From the IMG/VR virus record IMGVR_UViG_3300044656_000252, positions 1 to 64,000 of that record: a stretch of 64,000 nucleotides of DNA, one strand, 5' to 3'. The notes below the pieces were generated by a model. It was given only the letters and a program-made list of their open reading frames with translations, did no database searches and had not been told where the DNA came from. Position 1 is the first letter of the stretch. Each line of letters opens with the position of its first letter. Source of the DNA: a virus (taxonomy: Duplodnaviria; Caudoviricetes). The translations under genes and the position numbers were made by a program. Positions 6,336 through 64,000 of the stretch are shown here, in pieces.

Positions 6336-7021
6336 CGGATCAGCTCCCGGAGACACGCCACGTCCGCGTCCGCCTGAAGCTGGAGCCAGTCCTCGTACCG
6401 ATGCCGGTCCTCGTCGAACTGCTGCTGCGAGTTCGTCTCGCGGTACGAGTCGTCCAGCTCCGCCTTGCCGGCCGACGGGTGCAGGTGCTCGATCACCACG
6501 TCCGGCAGGTACCGCAGCCGTCCGATCCGCTCGCCGAGCACCTTCCACGCGTTGTCCACGTACAGGTGCACCAGACCTCCCGGCACCATGTAGCCCAACG
6601 CCCGCACGATGTCCGAGGTCATCGCGATCTGCGTCGGCAGGTTCTGCCGCTGGAACAGGTCGTCCCCGTACACCAGGCCGGTGCCCATCTCGTCGAGCAC
6701 GTCGACCATGCGCCGGTCCCAGCCGGCGGTGCGCGGCCGGTGGTCGTCACCGAGGAAGCCGACCATGCGGTAGCTGCGGCCATAGTTCAGCGCCACCTCG
6801 TTCAGCGTGCCGCCAAGCCGCAACCGATCGGTCATCAGCACCCATTGCGTGAACTCGGGTGCGCCGATCTCGCCGTACCCGGGTCGCTGCGGATCGTCGG
6901 CGTCGAGCGCAACCACGATGTCGGCCGCGCCCGTGGCGGTCTCGGCCCACGCCTTCAGCAGCTCGCGCACGTTCTCTGGCCTGCCACGGCTCGGCACGAT
7001 CATCAACAGGTCAGCTGCCAC
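6332..7021 (-). CDS. Glycosyltransferase family 2
   Basis: IVPSRGRP, VGFLGDDH, HLYVD, VIEHLHP motifs typical of phage GT-A enzymes. Confidence 0.85.
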   Translation of the reverse strand: MAADLLMIVPSRGRPENVRELLKAWAETATGAADIVVALDADDPQRPGYGEIGAPEFTQWVLMTDRLRLGGTLNEVALNYGRSYRMVGFLGDDHRPRTAGWDRRMVDVLDEMGTGLVYGDDLFQRQNLPTQIAMTSDIVRALGYMVPGGLVHLYVDNAWKVLGERIGRLRYLPDVVIEHLHPSAGKAELDDSYRETNSQQQFDEDRHRYEDWLQLQADADVACLRELIR

Positions 7022-7352
7022 TGTCGGACTCCTTCTTGCCTTCGATCTCGTCGGCGACCTGCCGCAGCAATGCGACAACGTCCGAACCATCCCCGCGCCC
7101 GAGCACCATCGGCGCGCCGACACCGACGGACACTGCCACCGTCGCCAGCAGCTCCTGCCGGACACACCGAAGCTCAACCGTGTCCCGGTCGGGATGCGTC
7201 AACCTCATGAGGTCCCACCGCCGGTCGGCCATCTCCGCCAACTCGGCGCTGCTCAACTCAACCCGGCCACCCAACCTGAGCACGAGCACGCCCACCAGCC
7301 GCATCGCGTCAGTCAGCTCCCGCTCAAGGTCCTGCGCACGCCGCCCGATCAC
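7011..7352 (-). CDS. Hypothetical protein
   Basis: Coupled ORF. Confidence 0.55.
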   Translation of the reverse strand: MIGRRAQDLERELTDAMRLVGVLVLRLGGRVELSSAELAEMADRRWDLMRLTHPDRDTVELRCVRQELLATVAVSVGVGAPMVLGRGDGSDVVALLRQVADEIEGKKESDSGS

Positions 7353-7591
7353 AACTGGTCCTTCGGCACAAACACCTGGACCCTCGCCAGAGCCTTCGCG
7401 GCGGCAGCGAAGGTCCTGCCTAGACGGATGAACGCGGCAGCCGAATCGGGGACCGTCGATGACGGCTGCAGGTTGGCGGCGACGTCGTCGCACGCCTTCG
7501 CCACGTCGCCGAGGATGTCGCCGAGATTGACGATCGTGCCGTCGGGCTGCTCGATTGGTGCTACAACCCACCGCTGCTCGTCGTTGCTCAC
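7349..7591 (-). CDS. Hypothetical protein (MSNDEQRW...)
   Basis: GTG start overlapping the TGA of the +1-frame tail of the upstream gene. Confidence 0.6.
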   Translation of the reverse strand: MSNDEQRWVVAPIEQPDGTIVNLGDILGDVAKACDDVAANLQPSSTVPDSAAAFIRLGRTFAAAAKALARVQVFVPKDQL

Positions 7592-8134
7592 GGCTGCTCC
7601 CCGTGGCCTCGGTGCGGCCGGGCACTCGCGAGCATCACAGCCTGCGCCCACCCGTCCTCCGCGTCGCCGATCAGTTCGCCATCGGGACAGTCCGGCACCA
7701 CCGCGACGTTCGACGTCAGCTTCAGCAGCGACTCGACGTAACGCAGGGCTCGGGACTGTCACCAGGTCAGCGGCCCGGATGCACCGCTCCAGCACCGCGA
7801 TCCGGTCGCCCTCGCACCACCAGTCCACGTCGCCGGCCAGCTCCGCACGCGGGTGCCAGAAGTCGGCATGCACGTCCACGATGGACCGGCACGAGCACGG
7901 CAGGGCGGCAACGTGCTCCAGCCGCTCCGCGATCCCCACCGAGCAGGGCATCAGCACTACGTACAGCCCGCAGCGGTCGGTCTCCAACTGGAGACTCTGG
8001 CTGACCACCACCAGATCCGGGATCAGGCGTCCTTGCTCCTCGAAGACCCGCCGCCCGCGCACCGGGTCGGTGACATCGTTCGCGCCGACGAAGTTGATGC
8101 GCCGCGTCGGCTGCGGCATCCCAGGCGTCGTCAT
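7588..8134 (-). pseudogene. GT-B N-terminal-like protein split by a +1 frameshift at ~7740 (or a recoded gene)
   Basis: 547 nt = 182 codons + 1; removing one T of GCG TTA CGT gives VTVPSPAYVESLLKLTSNVAVVPD, resembling the neighbouring GT4 (VTVTTEPLAEVMREFNRDVRIVPN); ends in a GTGA overlap. Confidence 0.65.
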
Positions 8135-9105
8135 GGCTTCAGCGCCTCCTCCCAAAGCCCAGCGTTCGCCTCGATCGTGTGCTTCGCCGCCAACGCCTTG
8201 GCCGCCGCGCCCATCGACTCCCGCAGTTCCGTGTCTCGCACCAGGTCCCGCACGTACCGCACCCAGTCACCGGGCTTCCGCACCAAGAAGCCCGTCTCGC
8301 CGTGTCGCACGAACGCCGCGTACGGGCCGACGTCGCTGGCCACCACCGGGATCCCCAGCGCCGCATACACCAGCGCGGTGACCCAGCTCTTGGACCGGTT
8401 GAACACGTGGTCCCGCAACGGCAACAGCCCCACGTGAAAGTCGATCGCCATCAGGAACGGGACCACGCCCTGCACCCACGGCGTCCACCGGTACCGATCC
8501 GCCGGCAGGCGCATGAACGGCCCGTAGTCCCCGCCCATCGTGTGCACCTCGAAGCCGCGCTCCTTCCGCAGCAGGCGCCGCAGCTCGTCCTCCATCACGC
8601 TGAGGTCCATGTCGTGCGTCGGCGAACCACCCCACCCGACCGTGACGATGTCGGACCGGCGCGGCGGCTCGTGCTCCAACAGCCACGAGGGGAGCAGGTT
8701 CGGCACGATCCGCACGTCCCGGTTGAACTCGCGCATCACCTCGGCCAGCGGCTCTGTCGTCACCGTCACCCGGGACGCCGCTGCCGCGTTCGCCCGGATG
8801 TTGTCCAGCACGCCCTGCTGCTTGTACCAGCGGTGCGCGACCGCATTCCGGGCGTCCACACGGAACAGATCGTCGTCGATCTCGTACACCAGGTGCCGGC
8901 CCTCGCGCGCCCACTTCTGCCACGTCCCCGTCGGGCCCGGCAGGTGCACCCGCTGTCCCACGATCACGTCCGCCTCCGGCGCGTCCCGGGTCAGAAGTGG
9001 ATGCACCGAAGTCGTGTGCCCGCGCGCAGCCAGCTCGGCCATGGGCAGCTCCATGCGCCAGTAGCCGCAGCCCTGGATGTCCGCCGACCAGCCAAAGATC
9101 CTCAC
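8131..9105 (-). CDS. Glycosyltransferase, GT-B fold (GT4-like)
   Basis: GCGYWRMELP, VYEIDDDL, VGWGGSPTH, FNRSKS..ALGIPVVASDVGPY..VRHGETGFLV. Confidence 0.9.
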   Translation of the reverse strand: MRIFGWSADIQGCGYWRMELPMAELAARGHTTSVHPLLTRDAPEADVIVGQRVHLPGPTGTWQKWAREGRHLVYEIDDDLFRVDARNAVAHRWYKQQGVLDNIRANAAAASRVTVTTEPLAEVMREFNRDVRIVPNLLPSWLLEHEPPRRSDIVTVGWGGSPTHDMDLSVMEDELRRLLRKERGFEVHTMGGDYGPFMRLPADRYRWTPWVQGVVPFLMAIDFHVGLLPLRDHVFNRSKSWVTALVYAALGIPVVASDVGPYAAFVRHGETGFLVRKPGDWVRYVRDLVRDTELRESMGAAAKALAAKHTIEANAGLWEEALKP

Positions 9106-9950
9106 GCGCTGGTCCTCCGCTCCACGGCCGCGCAACAGCACCGCTCGGGATCGGGCTCGTCGTAGCCCTCCTCGATGTCGGCGAGGCACGACGAGCAGCA
9201 CCGGCCCTTGTGCAGCTCACTGTCGATGTAGAACCGCTCCCAGTAGGTGGGCCACTGCCACCGCAACTGGCCGCGGTACTCGGCGAACCACCGCAGTTGG
9301 CTCTGCGGTCCCCATGAGGCCACAACCTCGGGCACGACGCCGTCGACCGGCGGCACGTACCGCTGCTCGTCCAACAGCGACGGTGCCGCATCCTCCGCCG
9401 GCTTCCCGCCGAACTGCGGCACCACCGTCGCCCTGATCGTGCACGTCGTCGTGAAGTCGTCGCCCGGCGGGGACTCCCACCGCGGACCGTCGACCAGCAC
9501 CACCATGCAGCCCCGCTCAGCAGCCTCGCGGTGCATCCGCGTGAGCATCGAGGACTCCATGAACTGATCGAACCCATCGGCCAAGCGCCGCTCGGCCACG
9601 CACACCTCGCGGCCGGTGAGCACCTGCCGTGCTGGCCATTCCCGCCGCACGTGCGCGACGAACGCCTCCAGCAGCGGATCGGTCACCACCGGCAGCTGCG
9701 ACTCGTCCGAGCCGTACAGCACGTACGCCCACGCCCCGCCGCGGTGCTCCCTCCGGTAGGCCAGGTCCGGCGGCCGACTCAACACCTCGCCCGGATCACG
9801 CGGCACCAGCGAGAACTGCGGCGGGACAGCGCGGTAGACCGTGTGCAGGACCGGGTAGTCACCGATCAGCGCATCCTCAACGGCCGCCACCCTCTCGGTC
9901 TGGCCGTCGTACGCGCCACCGACGAACCGCACCGCGATCGTCGCGCTCAC
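9102..9950 (-). CDS. Hypothetical protein with C-terminal Cys cluster
   Basis: Coupled ORF; CCSSC...CCC. Confidence 0.65.
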   Translation of the reverse strand: MSATIAVRFVGGAYDGQTERVAAVEDALIGDYPVLHTVYRAVPPQFSLVPRDPGEVLSRPPDLAYRREHRGGAWAYVLYGSDESQLPVVTDPLLEAFVAHVRREWPARQVLTGREVCVAERRLADGFDQFMESSMLTRMHREAAERGCMVVLVDGPRWESPPGDDFTTTCTIRATVVPQFGGKPAEDAAPSLLDEQRYVPPVDGVVPEVVASWGPQSQLRWFAEYRGQLRWQWPTYWERFYIDSELHKGRCCSSCLADIEEGYDEPDPERCCCAAVERRTSA

Positions 9951-10444
9951 GGCGTGTCCCCGACGTTCCACTCGGCCGCCAGGACCTCCACCATCCGAGT
10001 CGGCTTGCCCAAGCCGGACAGCCGCGGCAGACGGTCCTGCCATGGGTACGCGGCCATCTCCTGCCAAGCCTCCCGGAAGTCCACGACCTGCTGCTGCATT
10101 CGCACCGGCCACCGCTGCACGAACCACCGCAGCCACCACGACTCGCTGTGGCGCTGCTTCCAGTGCTGCCACGGCGTCGCCGGCCACTCGACCGCCTTCG
10201 TCCGGGTCACCTCGTGCTCGGCAAGCGGATGCGTCAGCACGAACGCCTTCAGCTTCAGCAAGATCAGCTCGGAGCAGAAGCCGAGCGCGTCGTCGATGGA
10301 CAGCTCGACACCCGTGACGCCGGGCGGGATGGCCACCTCGCGCGACAGCGGCTGGTAGAACCCCAGCTTCTTCCACTCCAGCACGTACTTCTGCGGCGCC
10401 GGCCCCTGCGGCTCCGGGCTCTCGGGCGTAAACCAGTCAGGCAC
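9947..10444 (-). CDS. Hypothetical phage protein
   Basis: ORF track; SD GGAGG; coupling. Confidence 0.65.
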   Translation of the reverse strand: MPDWFTPESPEPQGPAPQKYVLEWKKLGFYQPLSREVAIPPGVTGVELSIDDALGFCSELILLKLKAFVLTHPLAEHEVTRTKAVEWPATPWQHWKQRHSESWWLRWFVQRWPVRMQQQVVDFREAWQEMAAYPWQDRLPRLSGLGKPTRMVEVLAAEWNVGDTP

Positions 10445-44058: not shown

Positions 44059-45396
44059 GTGGTTACCGTCGCGCCCGAGCAGCCGCAGCGGGAGAGGTGG
44101 ATCTCTCCCCATGCGCTGCTGGGCGCTACCAGCGCGGGGAGCGCCGGCATGACGACGGCTGGGCTGATCGCGGGACCGACAGGTGTCGTGGTGGTGACGG
44201 CGGCGGGCGCGTTGACCGCTGGCGGGATCGCGGCGGTGCGCAGGTTCGCGCCGGGCGCGGCGGAGAAGCTGGGGCTGCGGAAGCCGGACAAGAAGGCCGA
44301 CAAGAAGTCGGACGGCAAGTCCAAGGCGAACGGCCCCGGCAAGGGCCTCGGGGGCAGGGGCGGTCTCGGTCGTCTCGGCCTGCTGGGTGCCGGCGGTCGC
44401 AAGAAGGGCGCCGGTGACGGTGGCGGCCGGAAGCGTGGCGGCGGCCTGCTGGGGATGGCCCGCAACATCGCCGGCAAGGGAGCCGGCCTGGCCAAGCGGG
44501 GCGCGAACGCCGCAGCGAAGAAGGGCGCTGGCCTGCTTGGCGGCAAGGACCCGACTCGCAGGAATGCCCGCGGCCGTAACGGGTCTGGGCCGGCCGGCGG
44601 GAAGCAGCGTGGTGTCGGTGGCCCGACCGGTCGTGGTCGTGGGGCCGGTAGCGGCCCGGGGCGCGGCAAAGGCCCCGGCGGCAAGAGCAACAGCGGCAAG
44701 GATCGGAGCAGCGGCCGCGGCTTGGGGGGCCGGCTCGGCCGCACCGCCGCAAGCCTTGTCGGCTGGGGCGCGCGCCGCTTGTTCGGCCTGAAGCGTCCCT
44801 CCGACACCAACTCCGCATCGACGGGGCATGGCGGAGGGAAGCCGAAGGACAGGAAGAAGCGCACCAAGGGCTCGGGGCTGCTCGGTGGCCGGGGCGCGGA
44901 GCGCATGCCGGACAGCGCGAGGCCCAAGGACCGCAAGGGCAAGAAGGACAAGAGCCGCACGAAGAACGTTCCGCCGGGCCGCGGGCCGCGGCGGGAGGTC
45001 ACAGCAGGACAGCCGGACCGGAGTGGCCGGCGCGCACATGGAGGAACGACGATGCCCGATCCGTTCGCGAGTCGCCGCGAGGCGATCTCGGGGGCCGCAC
45101 CGCTGGAGATCAACAAGGCTGGTGACGTCGCCGACTACGTCAAGCACGCCCCCGACTACGCCGAAGCGCAGGCCCGCGGGTGGCTGCGTGACGCCGACAC
45201 GATCGTCGAGAAGGTGAACCTGAACCCGGACTTCACCGACGCCCTGAAGGGGTTCGCGAACACGCAGCTGGCCGCCGTCCAGGCGGTGCGTGAGTACGGG
45301 GCCGTGTTCGAGCGCAGCCACGCCGAGAAGCTGCGGCGGACGCGCGACCGGGACCCGCGTGAGGCCATGTGGGACGTCGACCGTCACCGCGACTGA
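44059..45396 (+). CDS. Plasmid-transfer accessory protein (TraA-like): TM + Gly/Lys-rich linker + C-terminal domain
   Basis: SD AAGGAG; C-terminal ..AVFERSHAEKLRR..DPREAMWDV; directly upstream of the FtsK-like gene. Confidence 0.65.
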   Translation: MVTVAPEQPQRERWISPHALLGATSAGSAGMTTAGLIAGPTGVVVVTAAGALTAGGIAAVRRFAPGAAEKLGLRKPDKKADKKSDGKSKANGPGKGLGGRGGLGRLGLLGAGGRKKGAGDGGGRKRGGGLLGMARNIAGKGAGLAKRGANAAAKKGAGLLGGKDPTRRNARGRNGSGPAGGKQRGVGGPTGRGRGAGSGPGRGKGPGGKSNSGKDRSSGRGLGGRLGRTAASLVGWGARRLFGLKRPSDTNSASTGHGGGKPKDRKKRTKGSGLLGGRGAERMPDSARPKDRKGKKDKSRTKNVPPGRGPRREVTAGQPDRSGRRAHGGTTMPDPFASRREAISGAAPLEINKAGDVADYVKHAPDYAEAQARGWLRDADTIVEKVNLNPDFTDALKGFANTQLAAVQAVREYGAVFERSHAEKLRRTRDRDPREAMWDVDRHRD

Positions 45397-45418: not shown

Positions 45419-47905
45419 ATGACCGCGCCAGCCACCCAGGATGCGCCGCCGACTGACGAGAAGCCGGCCAAGGCCAAGAAGCAGAAGCCCGAGGCGACCC
45501 CGCCGAAGCGCGGTCTCGGTGACGCGCTGCGCGAGTTCGAGCCGGACTTGCGCTGGTTCCTGCCGGCGGTCGCCGCCTGCCAGGCGTACACGCTGGCGGC
45601 GATTCCGGTGTGGACCGGGCTGCCGTCCTGGGTGCTCGTCGCGCCCGGCGTGGCATCGACGGCGGCGGGTGTGTGGCTGGCCCGGCACTTCTACAAGGCC
45701 GTCGAGTACGGGCACGAGCAGCGGCGCGCGGCGCAGGCCATCGCGGTCGGCGCCGGCGTGCTGATGACCGCGTGGATGGTGTTCGCCGGCAGCGGGAACC
45801 CGCTGCGGCCGGTGGCGCTTGGCGCGCTGCTGCTGGTGGCGTTGGTGTGCGGGGCAGCGTTCGGCGCCCTGCACACCCGGGCCCCGTCGGTGAAGGCCGA
45901 GGTCGAGGCCAAGCGCACCGAGGTCATCGAGGCCAACTCGGAGCGCGTGGCCGAGGTCGAGCTGGCCAAGACCCGGGACGAGTGGCAGGAGATCGCCGAC
46001 CAGGCCCGACCCGGGTGCGGCATCACCGTCGTCGGCCGGGCGGACCAGCCGGGTGGCTTCTACGTCGACTTCGCTGACAACCCCACCAAGCCGATCAAGT
46101 GGGTGGGATTCTGCGACATGGTCGGCTCGATGCTGTCGATCGCCTCGGCGCGACTGGCGCCGTCCGGGATCGTCCTGTCTGAAGGCGACCTGAGCCCGGA
46201 GCAGCCGGAGGGTATGCCGGCGCACCTGTTTCGGCTGCACGTGTTCACGTCGAACGAGTTCGCCCAGAGCCTGCCGTACCCGATGGACCGGCCGGTCGGC
46301 ACGATCGTCGAGCCGCGGATCATCGGCCGCTACAAGGACATGTCGCCGCTGGGGGTGTGCCTGTGCGGCAACCACGGCGTGATGTGCGCCGGCACCGGCG
46401 GCGGGAAGACGGTGTGCGCGAACTGCCTGATCGCCGGGGTGCTCGAGTGTGGCGACGCCGAGGTGTGGATGGGTGGCACGTCGAAGCTGACGCCGTTGGC
46501 CTACCCGTGGCTGCTGCCGTGGCTGCTGGGTCGCACCACCCGACCGGTGATCCAGTACGTGTCGGGTGAGGACCCGCGCAGCGTCACCGAGATGCTCGCT
46601 GAGCTGTACCGGGAGGCGAAGCGCCGCAACTCGAAGCTGGGCCGCCGGTCGAAGCACGCGCCGTCGAAGGACGAGCCCGCGCTGGTGTGCTTCATCGAGG
46701 AAGCGTCCGACCTGCTGATGAACCACAGCGAGGTGCGGGTCCCCACGTTCGACGGGCACAGTTGGAACGCCTCGCAGATCTTGAACGCGATCGCGCAGAT
46801 CGCCCGCGCCGCGAGCATCTCGATCTTCCTGCTGACCCAGTTCGGGATCATGGACGCGCTGGGCACCCACGGGTCGCTGATGCGCCGCAACCTGACGATC
46901 CGAATCTGCGGCCGCACCTACACCTACAGCGATGGCCGGGACATCCTGACCGCGATCAGCGCACCTGACACGACCAAGCTGAAGGACAACACGCTGCTGG
47001 TGCAGCCCGCGATGGAGGAGCCGCGGGTGATGGCGGCGAAGGCGTACTTCCTGGACGGGGCGGAGACGATCGGCCCGGTCGCCGAGAAGTACACAGCACG
47101 CCGCACGGAATGGGAACCGCCGCTGGCTGGTGACGCTTTCCGCGAGCGGTGGAGCGCGCTGCGGCTGCCCGAGTTGGCCGCTATCGCAGCGGATGAGGGT
47201 CTATCGTGGCCCGGAAGTGTGCACACAGGGTCACGAGCCGCGGAGGTAATTGATCAGCCGGCGCTGCCGGTCGCGGCTCCCGATAAGGGGAGCGACACCA
47301 TGTCGGATGATGTGAAGGCGATGCTGAGCGATGCGCAGGCCCAGATGGATGTGGCGATCGAGTCGGCCCGCAAATACGGCCCGCTCGGCCCGCTGATGGG
47401 CGAAGTCTTCAACAAGGTGAATGCCGAGAACGCTCCCGAGTTCATTCCCGCCGGACAGCTCGCGTACGGCCTGGGGCGTGTCCTCAAGGACGGGGACTGG
47501 GACACGGCGGGGGACACCCTGGCCGGGGAGCTGGCGGGGAAGCCGTGGTACCTGTCCCCGACCCGTCAGGAGGGGACGTTGGGGTGGCCGCGGGACCTGA
47601 TCCTGGGGACGATCCGCGCGTTCCTCGAGGGACGCCCTGTCCCCGGCGAGGGGACGACCGAGGGGACGGACCTGTCGGCTGGGGAGACCTTGGGGGTCTT
47701 GGTGCGGGAGCTGGCCGGGGACGACCGCGAGTTCGTCACCGCGGTCGACGCCGCCGCCATGGTCGGGATGAGCGCGGCGGCGTTGCAGCGGATGCTCGAG
47801 GGCGAGCCGTTCAGGCTGCCGATGCAGCGACCCCGCACGGTCACGGATGGTGAGCGGCCGCGTGGCTGGTTCGTGGCGGATCTGCGCCGCGCTGCTGGCA
47901 TGTGA
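45419..47905 (+). CDS. traB: FtsK/SpoIIIE-family conjugative DNA translocase (TraB/TraSA-like)
   Basis: N-terminal TM helices; Walker A HGVMCAGTGGGKT; Walker B VCFIEEA; LTQ; RRNLTIRI; C-terminal wHTH-like ..RPRGWFVADL. Confidence 0.8.
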   Translation: MTAPATQDAPPTDEKPAKAKKQKPEATPPKRGLGDALREFEPDLRWFLPAVAACQAYTLAAIPVWTGLPSWVLVAPGVASTAAGVWLARHFYKAVEYGHEQRRAAQAIAVGAGVLMTAWMVFAGSGNPLRPVALGALLLVALVCGAAFGALHTRAPSVKAEVEAKRTEVIEANSERVAEVELAKTRDEWQEIADQARPGCGITVVGRADQPGGFYVDFADNPTKPIKWVGFCDMVGSMLSIASARLAPSGIVLSEGDLSPEQPEGMPAHLFRLHVFTSNEFAQSLPYPMDRPVGTIVEPRIIGRYKDMSPLGVCLCGNHGVMCAGTGGGKTVCANCLIAGVLECGDAEVWMGGTSKLTPLAYPWLLPWLLGRTTRPVIQYVSGEDPRSVTEMLAELYREAKRRNSKLGRRSKHAPSKDEPALVCFIEEASDLLMNHSEVRVPTFDGHSWNASQILNAIAQIARAASISIFLLTQFGIMDALGTHGSLMRRNLTIRICGRTYTYSDGRDILTAISAPDTTKLKDNTLLVQPAMEEPRVMAAKAYFLDGAETIGPVAEKYTARRTEWEPPLAGDAFRERWSALRLPELAAIAADEGLSWPGSVHTGSRAAEVIDQPALPVAAPDKGSDTMSDDVKAMLSDAQAQMDVAIESARKYGPLGPLMGEVFNKVNAENAPEFIPAGQLAYGLGRVLKDGDWDTAGDTLAGELAGKPWYLSPTRQEGTLGWPRDLILGTIRAFLEGRPVPGEGTTEGTDLSAGETLGVLVRELAGDDREFVTAVDAAAMVGMSAAALQRMLEGEPFRLPMQRPRTVTDGERPRGWFVADLRRAAGM

Positions 47906-47955
47906 GTCGTGCCGCGGGTGCCCTCCGGTCGTGCTCGGCTGGAGGGCATCGCTGT

Positions 47956-48203
47956 GTGGACCACCGCGTGGACCGGGCGTGGGCCGGCGTGGTCGTCGGC
48001 GTGGACCGGGTGTGGACCACCGGTCGGTGTGGACCAGCCGGTCCATGGCCGGTGACCTGGGATGGTCCACGTTGTCAACGATGTCACGCGAGTGGTCCAC
48101 GTGGACCAGCAGGACAGGTGCCGCAAATACCTGACCTGCGGAAACAGTCGCAACACCCCCTGTGTCGGGTGGTCCACGCAAACAGGCGTGGACCGTGTGG
48201 ACC
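47956..48203. repeat. GTGGACC/GGTCCAC repeat array (clt-like locus)
   Basis: 8 forward copies (47956, 47968, 48001, 48012, 48029, 48101, 48188, 48197) and 3 inverted (48064, 48094, 48171), plus degenerate copies. Confidence 0.85.
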
Positions 48204-48224
48204 ACAAGCGAGGAGCACACGCTG

Positions 48225-48980
48225 ATGATGGGCCGAACGCACGCGTTGTCCGGGTGGTGCGCGGGGCTACTGGTGGCTCCGTTGCTCGGCGCGGCCAGCC
48301 CGGCGCAGTCACTGTTAGTGGCGGCGACGGTGGCCGGCTGGAGTCTGGCGCCGGACCTGGATCACCCGGGCGCGGTGGCGACGCGGTGGGGCGGCTGGGT
48401 GACGGGCTGGTTGTCGCTGGCGCTGCGGGAGCTGTCGGCAGTGGCGTTCGAGGCGACGCGGACTCCCCGGGATCGGGACAGCGAGGGGACGCACCGGCAC
48501 CTCAGCCACACCTTCGTGTTCGCCGCGGTGGTCGGCGGGGTCACCGCGCTGGGGACTGCCCTGTCCCCTTGGTGGGGAGTGCTGCTCCCCGTGACGGTGG
48601 GGACTCTGCTGGCCGGGAGGTCCCTGGGGAGGTGGGTGCTGGGGGCGGGGGCTGTCCCCGTGGTGTGGGGACTCCTGGCGGGTGGGGACGAGCTGTCCCC
48701 CGTGCGCGGCTGGATCGGCGTGGCGGTCGCTCTTGGGTGTGTGGTGCACATCTTGGGGGATGCTCTGACGCGTGCGGGTGTGCCGTTCTTGTGGCCGCTG
48801 CCTATTCGTGGCCAGCGGTGGTTCCGGATAGCCACTCCGTATGGCCTGCGCTTTCGTGCTGGTGGTGGTGCTGAGCGTCTGCTGGTCTTTCCGTTGTTCG
48901 TTGTCTTGGGTGTTGCTCTCTTTCCGGGTGTTCTGTCGGTCGCTGTCGGTGTGGTGACCGGTGCGATAGGGGCTCGTTAG
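48225..48980 (+). CDS. YdjM-like membrane metal-dependent hydrolase
   Basis: MMGRTH..LAPDLDHP..HRHLSHT..HILGDALT..GVP.LWP. Confidence 0.88.
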   Translation: MMGRTHALSGWCAGLLVAPLLGAASPAQSLLVAATVAGWSLAPDLDHPGAVATRWGGWVTGWLSLALRELSAVAFEATRTPRDRDSEGTHRHLSHTFVFAAVVGGVTALGTALSPWWGVLLPVTVGTLLAGRSLGRWVLGAGAVPVVWGLLAGGDELSPVRGWIGVAVALGCVVHILGDALTRAGVPFLWPLPIRGQRWFRIATPYGLRFRAGGGAERLLVFPLFVVLGVALFPGVLSVAVGVVTGAIGAR

Positions 48981-62664: not shown

Positions 62665-63321
62665 TCATCCCGCCGGACGCAGAGCCCGGCGCCGGTCCTC
62701 ACCCTTCAGCGCCACCTGGCGGGACATTTCCCTCAACCGCGACGCCACCCGCTCGCCGAGCCCGTTGCGGAGCTCCGCGCCGCCGAGGTTGCTGGTGACG
62801 ATCGTGGCCAGGTGGTGTTCGTACCGGTGGTTGATCACCCGGAACGTGATCTCCTCCGTCCACTCCGACGTCTTGGCCGCGCCGAGGTCGTCGAGCAGCA
62901 ACAGCGGGATCTTCTGGTAGCGGGCCATGGCTGCCTCGGGGTTGCCACGCTCCTTCGGCCGCAGTTCGGCGTAGAGGTCGGCGGCGGTGATGGCGGCCCA
63001 GCTGACGGCGACGCCGCTGTGGGCGATCTGCCGGATCGCCCCGAACGACTCGTGTGTCTTGCCCGTGCCAACCGGCCCGAGCAGGAGCAGCGAGGGTCCT
63101 GTCGCGACGATCGGGTTGAACGCCCGTGCCGACTTGGCCGCGCTGTGGCACAGCTCGACGGCCCAGGCGCGCACGCCGGGGTCGGTGACGGTGGCCTCGC
63201 GGTAGTGGACCGGCACGTCGGCGAGGGCCGCGTCGGCGTTGGCCTGGTTGGTCTCGACCCAGTGCGGGTCCAGGCCCGGGTAGGCGTCGATCAGGTCGAG
63301 CAGCGCGAGTTCGTGCATCAC
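62665..63321 (-). CDS. DnaC/IstB-like AAA+ helicase loader
   Basis: LLLGPVGTGKT, LLLLDDLGA, VINHRY..TIVTSNL..GERVASRL. Confidence 0.92.
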   Translation of the reverse strand: MMHELALLDLIDAYPGLDPHWVETNQANADAALADVPVHYREATVTDPGVRAWAVELCHSAAKSARAFNPIVATGPSLLLLGPVGTGKTHESFGAIRQIAHSGVAVSWAAITAADLYAELRPKERGNPEAAMARYQKIPLLLLDDLGAAKTSEWTEEITFRVINHRYEHHLATIVTSNLGGAELRNGLGERVASRLREMSRQVALKGEDRRRALRPAG

Positions 63322-64000
63322 AGGTCCTCGTCGTAGATGGAGTGATCGGTCGGGCTCCGGAAGGGCTGATAGCCGCCGGCGGCGGCGCGCAGCTGGGGCC
63401 GCTGGGGCTCGTCGTCCCAGCAGCCCTTGTTGAGCCAGGTGGCCGGGTGCTTGGTGTAGGTCGGGTCCTGGCCGGCCCGCTCAGCGGCGTAGCGACGCAC
63501 GCCGGCGATGAGCTCGTCCGCGGTGGCCCCGTCCTTGATGGCCTTGTCCCAGGCGCGGCGGGCGTCCTTCTTCCCGACCTTCTTGGGATAGACCCTCCAG
63601 AACTCGTCGAACTGGGCGGTCGTGATCGCCACCGGCGGCGGGGGAGAGAGATCTATTGGCAGTTCAATTGGCAGTTCACTGGCAGTTGTAGCCGGGGTGA
63701 CCTGCGGTTGTAACGGTTGTGGGGCCGTGACAAACGGCGTGCCGCGCCGTGACTCACGCACTGCCGCGCCGTGACTCACGGCCTGCGACGCCGTGACCGT
63801 CACGTCCTCGCGCGCCGTGACTGTCACGCTCTCCGAGACCGTGACATCACGGTCTGGCGCACCGTGACCGGCGGCCTCCTGAGCCCTCCGCTCGCGGTGC
63901 CGCCGCTGCCGCTCGCGGTCGGCCAGGCGCCGCCGCTCCCGGTGCTGGTCGACCACCGACGGCCCGGTGTTGACGACCTCGAGGTGCAGCCGCCACACCA
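63318..64000 (-). CDS. Phage replication initiator (5' end outside the window)
   Basis: C-terminal FDEFWRVYPKKVGK..A..AW..KHPATWLN..CWDDE; upstream of the DnaC-like gene. Confidence 0.85.
   Translation of the reverse strand, partial: VWRLHLEVVNTGPSVVDQHRERRRLADRERQRRHRERRAQEAAGHGAPDRDVTVSESVTVTAREDVTVTASQAVSHGAAVRESRRGTPFVTAPQPLQPQVTPATTASELPIELPIDLSPPPPVAITTAQFDEFWRVYPKKVGKKDARRAWDKAIKDGATADELIAGVRRYAAERAGQDPTYTKHPATWLNKGCWDDEPQRPQLRAAAGGYQPFRSPTDHSIYDEDL
63725..63868. repeat. Iteron-like CCGTGAC repeats inside the initiator gene (probable ori)
   Basis: Copies at 63725, 63747, 63769, 63791, 63815, 63839, 63862; spacing 22-24 bp. Confidence 0.75.

Follow-up and report, generated by a model that had tools for sequence, protein, structure and literature searches.

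TraB and clt make up a one-protein conjugation system for double-stranded DNA, found on Streptomyces plasmids and AICEs. FtsK and SpoIIIE also use a C-terminal winged helix to read short words by which they load on double-stranded DNA, and these words (KOPS and SRS) are polar and dispersed along the chromosome. A plasmid-phage that bears on the comparison, pZL12, was reportedly described by Zhong et al. 2010, J Bacteriol 192:3747. In the literature on plasmid transfer, TraB hexamers assemble at clt and recognise 8-bp repeats there, and the direct repeats of clt are plasmid-specific (PMC4170104, PMC4447253). Published clt loci consist of multiple direct and inverted repeats of 5-9 bp, and those of pWTY27 and pSVH1 adjoin the tra gene and are bound by Tra (PMC3583192, PMC4447253, PMC4170104). 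The pWTY27 clt lies at the end of traA and has four 7-bp repeats, inverted repeats and a TraA footprint, and pJV1 has nine 9-bp repeats (PMC3583192). In the plasmids, recognition of the clt word falls to the C-terminal winged helix of an FtsK-like translocase that is anchored in the membrane (PMC3583192, PMC4447253, PMC4170104), and helix 3 of this domain is what the TraB of pSVH1 uses to read its 8-bp words (PMC3583192). Passages that cite pZL12 present it as a Streptomyces plasmid-phage with a tra locus (PMC3583192, PMC7157519, PMC4487206).

The locus analysed here lies in a 64,000-bp stretch of DNA, hereafter the window, and judged by its sequence it has the anatomy of a plasmid clt: several short direct and inverted repeats (7-9 bp in the plasmids) of a specific word are packed into a short non-coding stretch next to the 3' end of a tra-type gene. 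The product of that gene, P0002, combines the Walker motifs, the FtsK/SpoIIIE-type motor, the homology to pIJ101 Tra and the predicted winged-helix tail of a Tra translocase. Unlike the plasmid loci, however, the array has 14 sites and a new word, GTGGACC; its architecture is compound, with flanking zones of GGGGAC in coding DNA and a 15-mer core, itself enriched in host genomes as well; its pump has two winged helices in tandem, as predicted from a structural model; and its carrier is an integrative tailed phage. With FtsK/KOPS and SpoIIIE/SRS the pair would share an FtsK/SpoIIIE-type motor, recognised by the family profile, and reading by a C-terminal winged helix, but GTGGACC is concentrated in both orientations in one 250-bp array and shows no excess elsewhere in the replicon. 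pZL12 is likewise an actinomycete temperate phage genome carrying a tra locus, but it replicates as a plasmid with ParAB, whereas the present phage encodes an integrase. Neither the phage nor the plasmid collections yielded a match between pZL12 and the pump, and any relationship of the two pumps is therefore distant at best.

The window belongs to a single contig of 76,231 bp whose ends overlap by 127 bp, which makes it a circular assembly. This replicon is a temperate, integrative tailed phage of an actinomycete and neither a plasmid nor an AICE; plasmid identity was rejected because the record is classed as that of a virus and because integrase, initiator, ERF recombinase, DnaC-like and phage structural genes are present. 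A search of plasmid DNA with the locus returned no match. The features in and around the array are:

44059..45396, plus strand: upstream partner gene with a Gly-rich product, directly 5' of the pump gene
45419..47905, plus strand: TraB/FtsK-like DNA translocase gene (P0002, 828 aa), here called the pump gene
47336..47653, plus strand: coding region of predicted winged helix 1 (residues ~640-745)
47681..47902, plus strand: coding region of predicted winged helix 2 (residues 755-828), with the putative recognition helix SAAALQRMLEG
47919..47948, plus strand: strong stem-loop, an inverted repeat directly after the pump stop codon
47954..48037, plus strand: array block 1, five exact and two degenerate forward words
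48040..48107: array block 2, GGTCCAT at 48040, GGTCCAC at 48064 and 48094, head-to-head palindrome
48169..48205: array block 3, one inverted word (48171) and two forward words (48188, 48197)
48225..48980, plus strand: YdjM-like membrane metal-hydrolase gene (PF04307, E 9e-22; phrog_20744, E 6e-48), downstream of the array

Over 252 bp (47954-48205) the array contains 11 exact copies of GTGGACC and three degenerate ones: GTGGGCC (47979), GTGGTCG (47989) and GGTCCAT (48040). Exact copies stand at 47956, 47968, 48001, 48012, 48029, 48101, 48188 and 48197 on the plus strand and at 48064, 48094 and 48171 on the minus strand; the original prediction had named these eight forward and three inverted heptamers, the degenerate copies and the palindrome at 48094-48107, and all were found where it placed them. 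The array holds 11 of the 21 copies of GTGGACC in the window. Counted over the whole replicon, as the prediction had proposed, the word occurs 23 times, and the 12 copies outside the array, spread through the rest of the 76,231 bp, are at or below the level expected by chance (18.5 +/- 4.5 per 64 kb in shuffles). A genome-wide, stoperator-like use of GTGGACC was rejected on that ground. No other 7-mer of the replicon is as clustered: a Poisson model expects 0.04 copies in 248 bp, where 11 are observed (P about 8e-24). The extended word approximates G-Y-GTGGACC-R (9-10 bp); in the motif first put forward, (G/T)GTGGACC, the 5' base needs correction, since it is C or T at every site.

In block 1 the first six (four exact, two degenerate) follow one another at 10-12 bp and the last comes after 17 bp. 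The palindrome of block 2, GGTCCACGTGGACC (GGTCCAC-GTGGACC), is also present in a related locus, L009, and the final word pair of block 3, CGTGGACCGYGTGGACC, which ends 20 bp before the start of the next gene, aligns with L009 as well. The array begins 49 bp past the pump stop codon, in keeping with the claim that it lies directly downstream of that gene, and behind the stem-loop, whose RNA fold of -34.5 kcal/mol (z -4.1) was equalled by none of 200 shuffles. This hairpin is terminator-like but has no U-tract, and analogous hairpins occur in the related loci L009, L013 and L015. The intergenic stretch measures 319 bp (47906-48224). GC3 in the frames of the array is 0.59-0.81, against 0.91 in the pump gene; a hidden gene was rejected because no frame carries the coding GC3 pattern of the genome and because indels relative to L009 are not multiples of three, and the array is thus non-coding, as had been claimed. 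A structured RNA was rejected for want of any Rfam match at E 1.

P0002 carries a Walker A motif (AGTGGGKT), a Walker B motif (VCFIEE) and, in a Kyte-Doolittle scan, three hydrophobic N-terminal segments between residues ~70 and 156, as in a protein anchored in the membrane by its N-terminus. It matches the FtsK/SpoIIIE-like family phrog_31069 (E 2e-12), while as a single sequence it has no match in Pfam (E 0.01) or NCBIfam. Homologues with 60-84% identity exist (P0003-P0011), and these have helix 3 in common with P0002; scans of viral and metagenome contigs yielded no contig that encodes them. The family comprises 538 cluster representatives. Searched against the PDB, the family profile finds FtsK (1e-11) and EccC (4e-13), and an 88-sequence family alignment compared with pIJ101 Tra (KilA) by hhalign gives a probability of 98.3% (E 1.9e-14) over 290 columns, among them the part N-terminal to the P-loop, the C-terminal domains remaining unaligned. 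These profile comparisons show the motor to be a homologue of both FtsK and pIJ101 Tra. The assignment of the gene as traB-like is accordingly based on the profile searches (FtsK, pIJ101 Tra, PHROG) and not on the single-sequence Pfam search.

The last 201 residues of P0002 are modelled by AlphaFold (pLDDT 85.5) as two H-b-H-H-wing units. In VIA-align comparisons the first resembles the winged helices of Rex and MarR (Z 5-6.7) and the second also matches winged helices (Z 4.4-5.3); the structural neighbours of the tail are all winged helices (ScpB, Rex, MarR, BldC, TcpK), at modest Z scores of 4.4-6.7 that lie in the range of a common arrangement. Foldseek returned nothing from the PDB for the tail at E 0.001. 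FtsK-gamma is absent from the top VIA-align rows, which indicates neither likeness nor difference. Winged helix 1 is 41-53% identical in the related loci L001, L009, L010 and L013, and winged helix 2 is our candidate reader of GTGGACC. The gene upstream of the pump gene had no family match in family and PHROG profile searches. The C-terminal domain of its product (~120 aa; residues ~300-445) is 35-40% identical in L002, L009, L010, L011 and L013 (tblastn), where it sits directly upstream of the pump gene and, in L013, is duplicated. The Gly-rich protein is likely a partner of the pump.

Distant relatives of the pump were drawn from GTDB genomes, from the phage-plasmids pAmyja1 and pGBA129-24a and from Saccharomonospora phage PIS 136. 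Among them, L002, like L014 and L023, belongs to a genome that is flagged as unpublished, and statements that rely on it need the depositors' permission before publication; the argument holds without this genome, by way of L001, L003 and L009. The genes common to the window and its relatives are only the pump gene, the part encoding the C-terminal domain of the upstream partner and, in two loci, the YdjM-like gene, which has homologues at the matching position in L019 and L022 and none there in L009. At the DNA level L001 and L002 are homologous over precisely the pump gene and the array, and no further; besides the pump gene, they share with the window only part of the upstream partner gene. 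At least eight related lineages have an array of short repeats after the pump stop codon, with a lineage-specific word of 6-15 bp:

Window: GTGGACC
L009: GTGGACC
L001, L002 and L003: GTGGCAKG
pGBA129-24a: CGGTAG
pAmyja1 (= L021): CCCGTNACG, within GGGGAC fields
L018: a 15-mer, five times
L019: CCCGTCCA
L020: CGCAGA
L022: CACCGTCC

In addition, L015 has a weak array 3' of the pump stop codon, and in PIS 136 and G144 arrays of GTGGAAC lie 2.3-2.8 kb upstream of the pump gene. Within the flanking DNA examined, L010, L013 and L016 show no array right after the pump stop codon. The pump gene (7917-10431) of L001, a MAG lineage, is split by a frameshift, which could reflect decay of this copy or, alternatively, an error in the long reads. 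A DDE transposase gene (6890-7732) stands directly upstream of it, and the array is kept. In L003 the pump region is rearranged and the array is likewise kept.

Two of the relatives were deposited as plasmids. pAmyja1 of Amycolatopsis japonica (L005/L007, NZ_CP008954) carries portal, terminase, tape-measure, tail-tube and lysozyme genes, and pGBA129-24a of Actinoalloteichus (L006, NZ_CP016078) carries a portal homologue. Both look like phage-plasmids, and both have the pump-plus-array cassette. PIS 136 (JX006077) is a phage isolate with a host of the same family; its gene PIS_041, annotated as FtsK/SpoIIIE, encodes a pump 30% identical to P0002 over residues 37-736, and its array has a similar word. 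It differs from the present phage in the position of the array 2.4-2.8 kb upstream of the pump gene, in a winged helix 2 of another, long type and in a second, ATPase-only pump paralogue, PIS_039 (L008 6678-7631), immediately 3' of the full-length gene. Next to its GTGGAAC array runs a long stretch rich in GGAACC (L008 1720-2560).

The comparison of words with pump proteins amounts to a natural domain swap. L001 is 46% identical to the window protein overall and is closer to it than L009 in every part but the last domain, with 43% identity in the transmembrane and linker region, 50% in the motor and 53% in winged helix 1; its winged helix 2 is of an unrelated type, with no detectable similarity to that of the window protein, and it uses the word GTGGCAKG. 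Overall, L009 is the less similar of the two (38-40%; transmembrane region 30%, motor 44%, winged helix 1 41%), but its winged helix 2 is 62% identical, and its array has 12 copies of GTGGACC in the same order as the window: a direct block, the palindrome, inverted copies, the core CTGCGGAAAC and the final pair. The word columns of the two arrays are 68% identical and the spacers 45%. Similar winged helices 2 also go with a common word (GTGGAAC) in PIS 136 and G144, and L019 and L022, with a similar helix 3, have words that share CCGTCC. These cases support the view that the array word tracks the last winged helix and not the overall relatedness of the protein, a co-variation seen in sequences of few lineages and resting on relatedness. 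Such tracking is what the clt/TraB model predicts, and models based on a host factor or a separate regulator do not predict it.

The array is embedded in a wider pattern of repeats, which comprises:

47492..47722: left GGGGAC zone, seven GGGGAC and two GTCCCC, within the 3' part of the pump gene in several frames
48132..48146, plus strand: conserved core TGACCTGCGGAAACA, unique in the window and placed in a 63-bp gap of the array that is free of repeats
48485..48700: right GGGGAC zone, five GGGGAC and three GTCCCC, within the YdjM-like gene

Together the two zones, which run through several reading frames, hold 17 of the 57 copies in the replicon within 447 bp (P about 5e-26), and such overprinting shows selection at the DNA level on protein-coding sequence. 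The arrays of L019 and L022, whose words differ, are likewise flanked by GGGGAC zones, and such zones fill the non-coding flanks in pAmyja1; they are absent in L009 and L001. The 15-mer core is found identically in PIS 136 (L008 about 1240-1460; one forward copy and two reverse near-copies). Its 13-mer GACCTGCGGAAAC is present twice in L019 and near the pump gene of G144, and L009 has it with one mismatch; L026 also carries the 13-15-mer (T)GACCTGCGGAAAC(A). In five host (Pseudonocardiaceae) genomes the 13-mer is over-represented three- to sixfold relative to its reversed control; of 14 exact copies in hosts, three are no more than 70 bp from a perfect DnaA box, and some lie next to a tRNA gene. 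Readings of the 15-mer as an ECF-sigma or GlnR/MtrA-type site were dropped because its orientation to the downstream gene varies between the window and L019 and because the spacing does not fit. The zones and the core are probably part of the same cis locus of about 1.2 kb as the array, and they suggest additional readers, possibly including a host factor.

Because FtsK and SpoIIIE are the closest solved relatives of the pump, the array could also be conceived as a centromere-like segregation site, with which the pump would retain the prophage, excised or in its plasmid state, in spores and hyphal compartments, or clear it through closing septa in the manner of FtsK and SpoIIIE, without any transfer from cell to cell. 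The circular phage-plasmids pAmyja1 and pGBA129-24a among the relatives would fit, as would the fact that no relaxase or other conjugation gene was seen. Yet the pump is no less strongly homologous to the conjugative Tra of pIJ101 than to FtsK, the partner gene upstream is conserved as in tra/spd operons, and the tyrosine integrase encoded by the phage means that plasmid-type segregation may be unnecessary; we consider this account unlikely. Somewhat harder to credit is an operator or promoter array, at which the pump tail or a nearby regulator (HTH/GntR) would control the YdjM-like operon or read-through from the pump gene. The position between the terminator-like hairpin and the ribosome-binding site of the next gene requires that gene to have its promoter within or close to the array, HTH and GntR genes follow 1.3-2.7 kb downstream (Pfam), and plasmid tra genes are known to be under Kor/TraR control (PMC4447253). 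But no promoter or terminator consensus, a sigma-70-like promoter included, was found at the array; the GntR, HTH and YdjM-like genes are not conserved with it, the arrays of L009, L001 and L002 being without them; 14 sites far exceed typical operators; and the word tracks the winged helix 2 of the pump itself.

Replication would explain the phased direct repeats as iterons, or as a cluster of weak DnaA boxes, serving an origin for the plasmid state. When the sites of the array are scored against TTGTCCACA, which we take to be the actinomycete DnaA-box consensus, the reverse complement TGGTCCACA of four of them is one mismatch away, and the host copies of the 13-mer close to perfect DnaA boxes point in the same direction. 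The other seven sites, however, have three mismatches, so that the array contains no perfect box and does not qualify as a DnaA-box cluster; it has no AT-rich unwinding stretch; and its word differs between relatives of one host family and follows the winged helix 2 of the pump. Moreover, the phage has replication genes of its own, which are listed here with the integrase gene:

62665-63321: DnaC/IstB-like loader gene, adjoining the initiator gene
63318-64265, minus strand: replication-initiator gene (phrog_270, E 4e-34)
74795-76000 of the replicon: tyrosine integrase gene, 27 kb from the array

Inside the initiator gene, seven CCGTGAC iterons lie on one strand at a spacing of 22-24 bp (window 63725-63868, = L004 3725-3868). 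The iterons probably mark the phage origin, with a layout like that of the lambda origin inside gene O, and they lie about 15 kb from the array. A last alternative, arm-type attP sites of the integrase or recognition repeats of the terminase (pac/cos), draws on the resemblance of attP architecture to some 250 bp of short direct and inverted repeats around a repeat-free core; but the integrase gene is not adjacent, the terminase gene is at 15.4 kb, and the array accompanies the pump gene in loci that have neither gene. Given a distance of 15 kb to the initiator and its iterons and of 27 kb to the integrase, these two readings are in effect disposed of, the origin being very improbable and attP or pac sites extremely so.

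We therefore favour, as the probable explanation, that the GTGGACC array is a clt-like cognate docking site of the TraB/FtsK-like translocase encoded immediately upstream, a reading built on comparison of sequences. The membrane-anchored ATPase would assemble on circular double-stranded phage DNA, its last winged-helix domain would read words of the form G-Y-GTGGACC-R, and the motor would then pump the double-stranded genome through a membrane or septum. Because the first six words are phased at one helical turn, several tails of one ring could bind adjacently, side by side on the DNA. Binding, ring loading and translocation are steps that we infer, as is their biological purpose, a conjugation-like or intramycelial spread of the phage genome. 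Several observations weigh against the docking-site reading. With the lineage-invariant GGGGAC flanks (window, L019, L022, pAmyja1), either GGGGAC or GTGGACC may be the word that the pump reads first, and to these are added the Pfam null result, C-terminal domains that do not align with those of pIJ101 Tra, the three relatives without an array right after the stop codon and the four sites near the DnaA-box consensus.

The original prediction had equated the 248 bp of the array with the cis locus read by the C-terminal winged helix of the adjacent TraB-like protein. The conserved pairing of gene and array and the co-variation of word and winged helix 2 speak for its central idea, but its extent was probably drawn too narrowly, the GGGGAC zones and the 15-mer core lying outside or between the words. 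We can therefore also envisage, more tentatively and as something less likely than the docking site itself, a tripartite cis locus of about 1.2 kb, in which an array with a swappable word, lineage-invariant GGGGAC zones and a host-enriched GACCTGCGGAAAC core, possibly recruiting a host factor, would enable virion-free transfer of the double-stranded genome between hyphal compartments or cells. If this were true, the phage would have a second, capsid-independent route of transmission.

What sets the present case apart is that the logic of a pump with its address label would reside inside a complete, integrative tailed phage, and that it recurs in Pseudonocardiaceae phages and phage-plasmids. 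The natural swap of winged helix 2 together with the word offers a directly testable specificity code for such translocases. Should the pair work, a route of spread that requires neither lysis nor receptors would be open to the temperate phages of mycelial actinomycetes, with an effect on the movement of prophages, and of the genes they carry, through soil populations.
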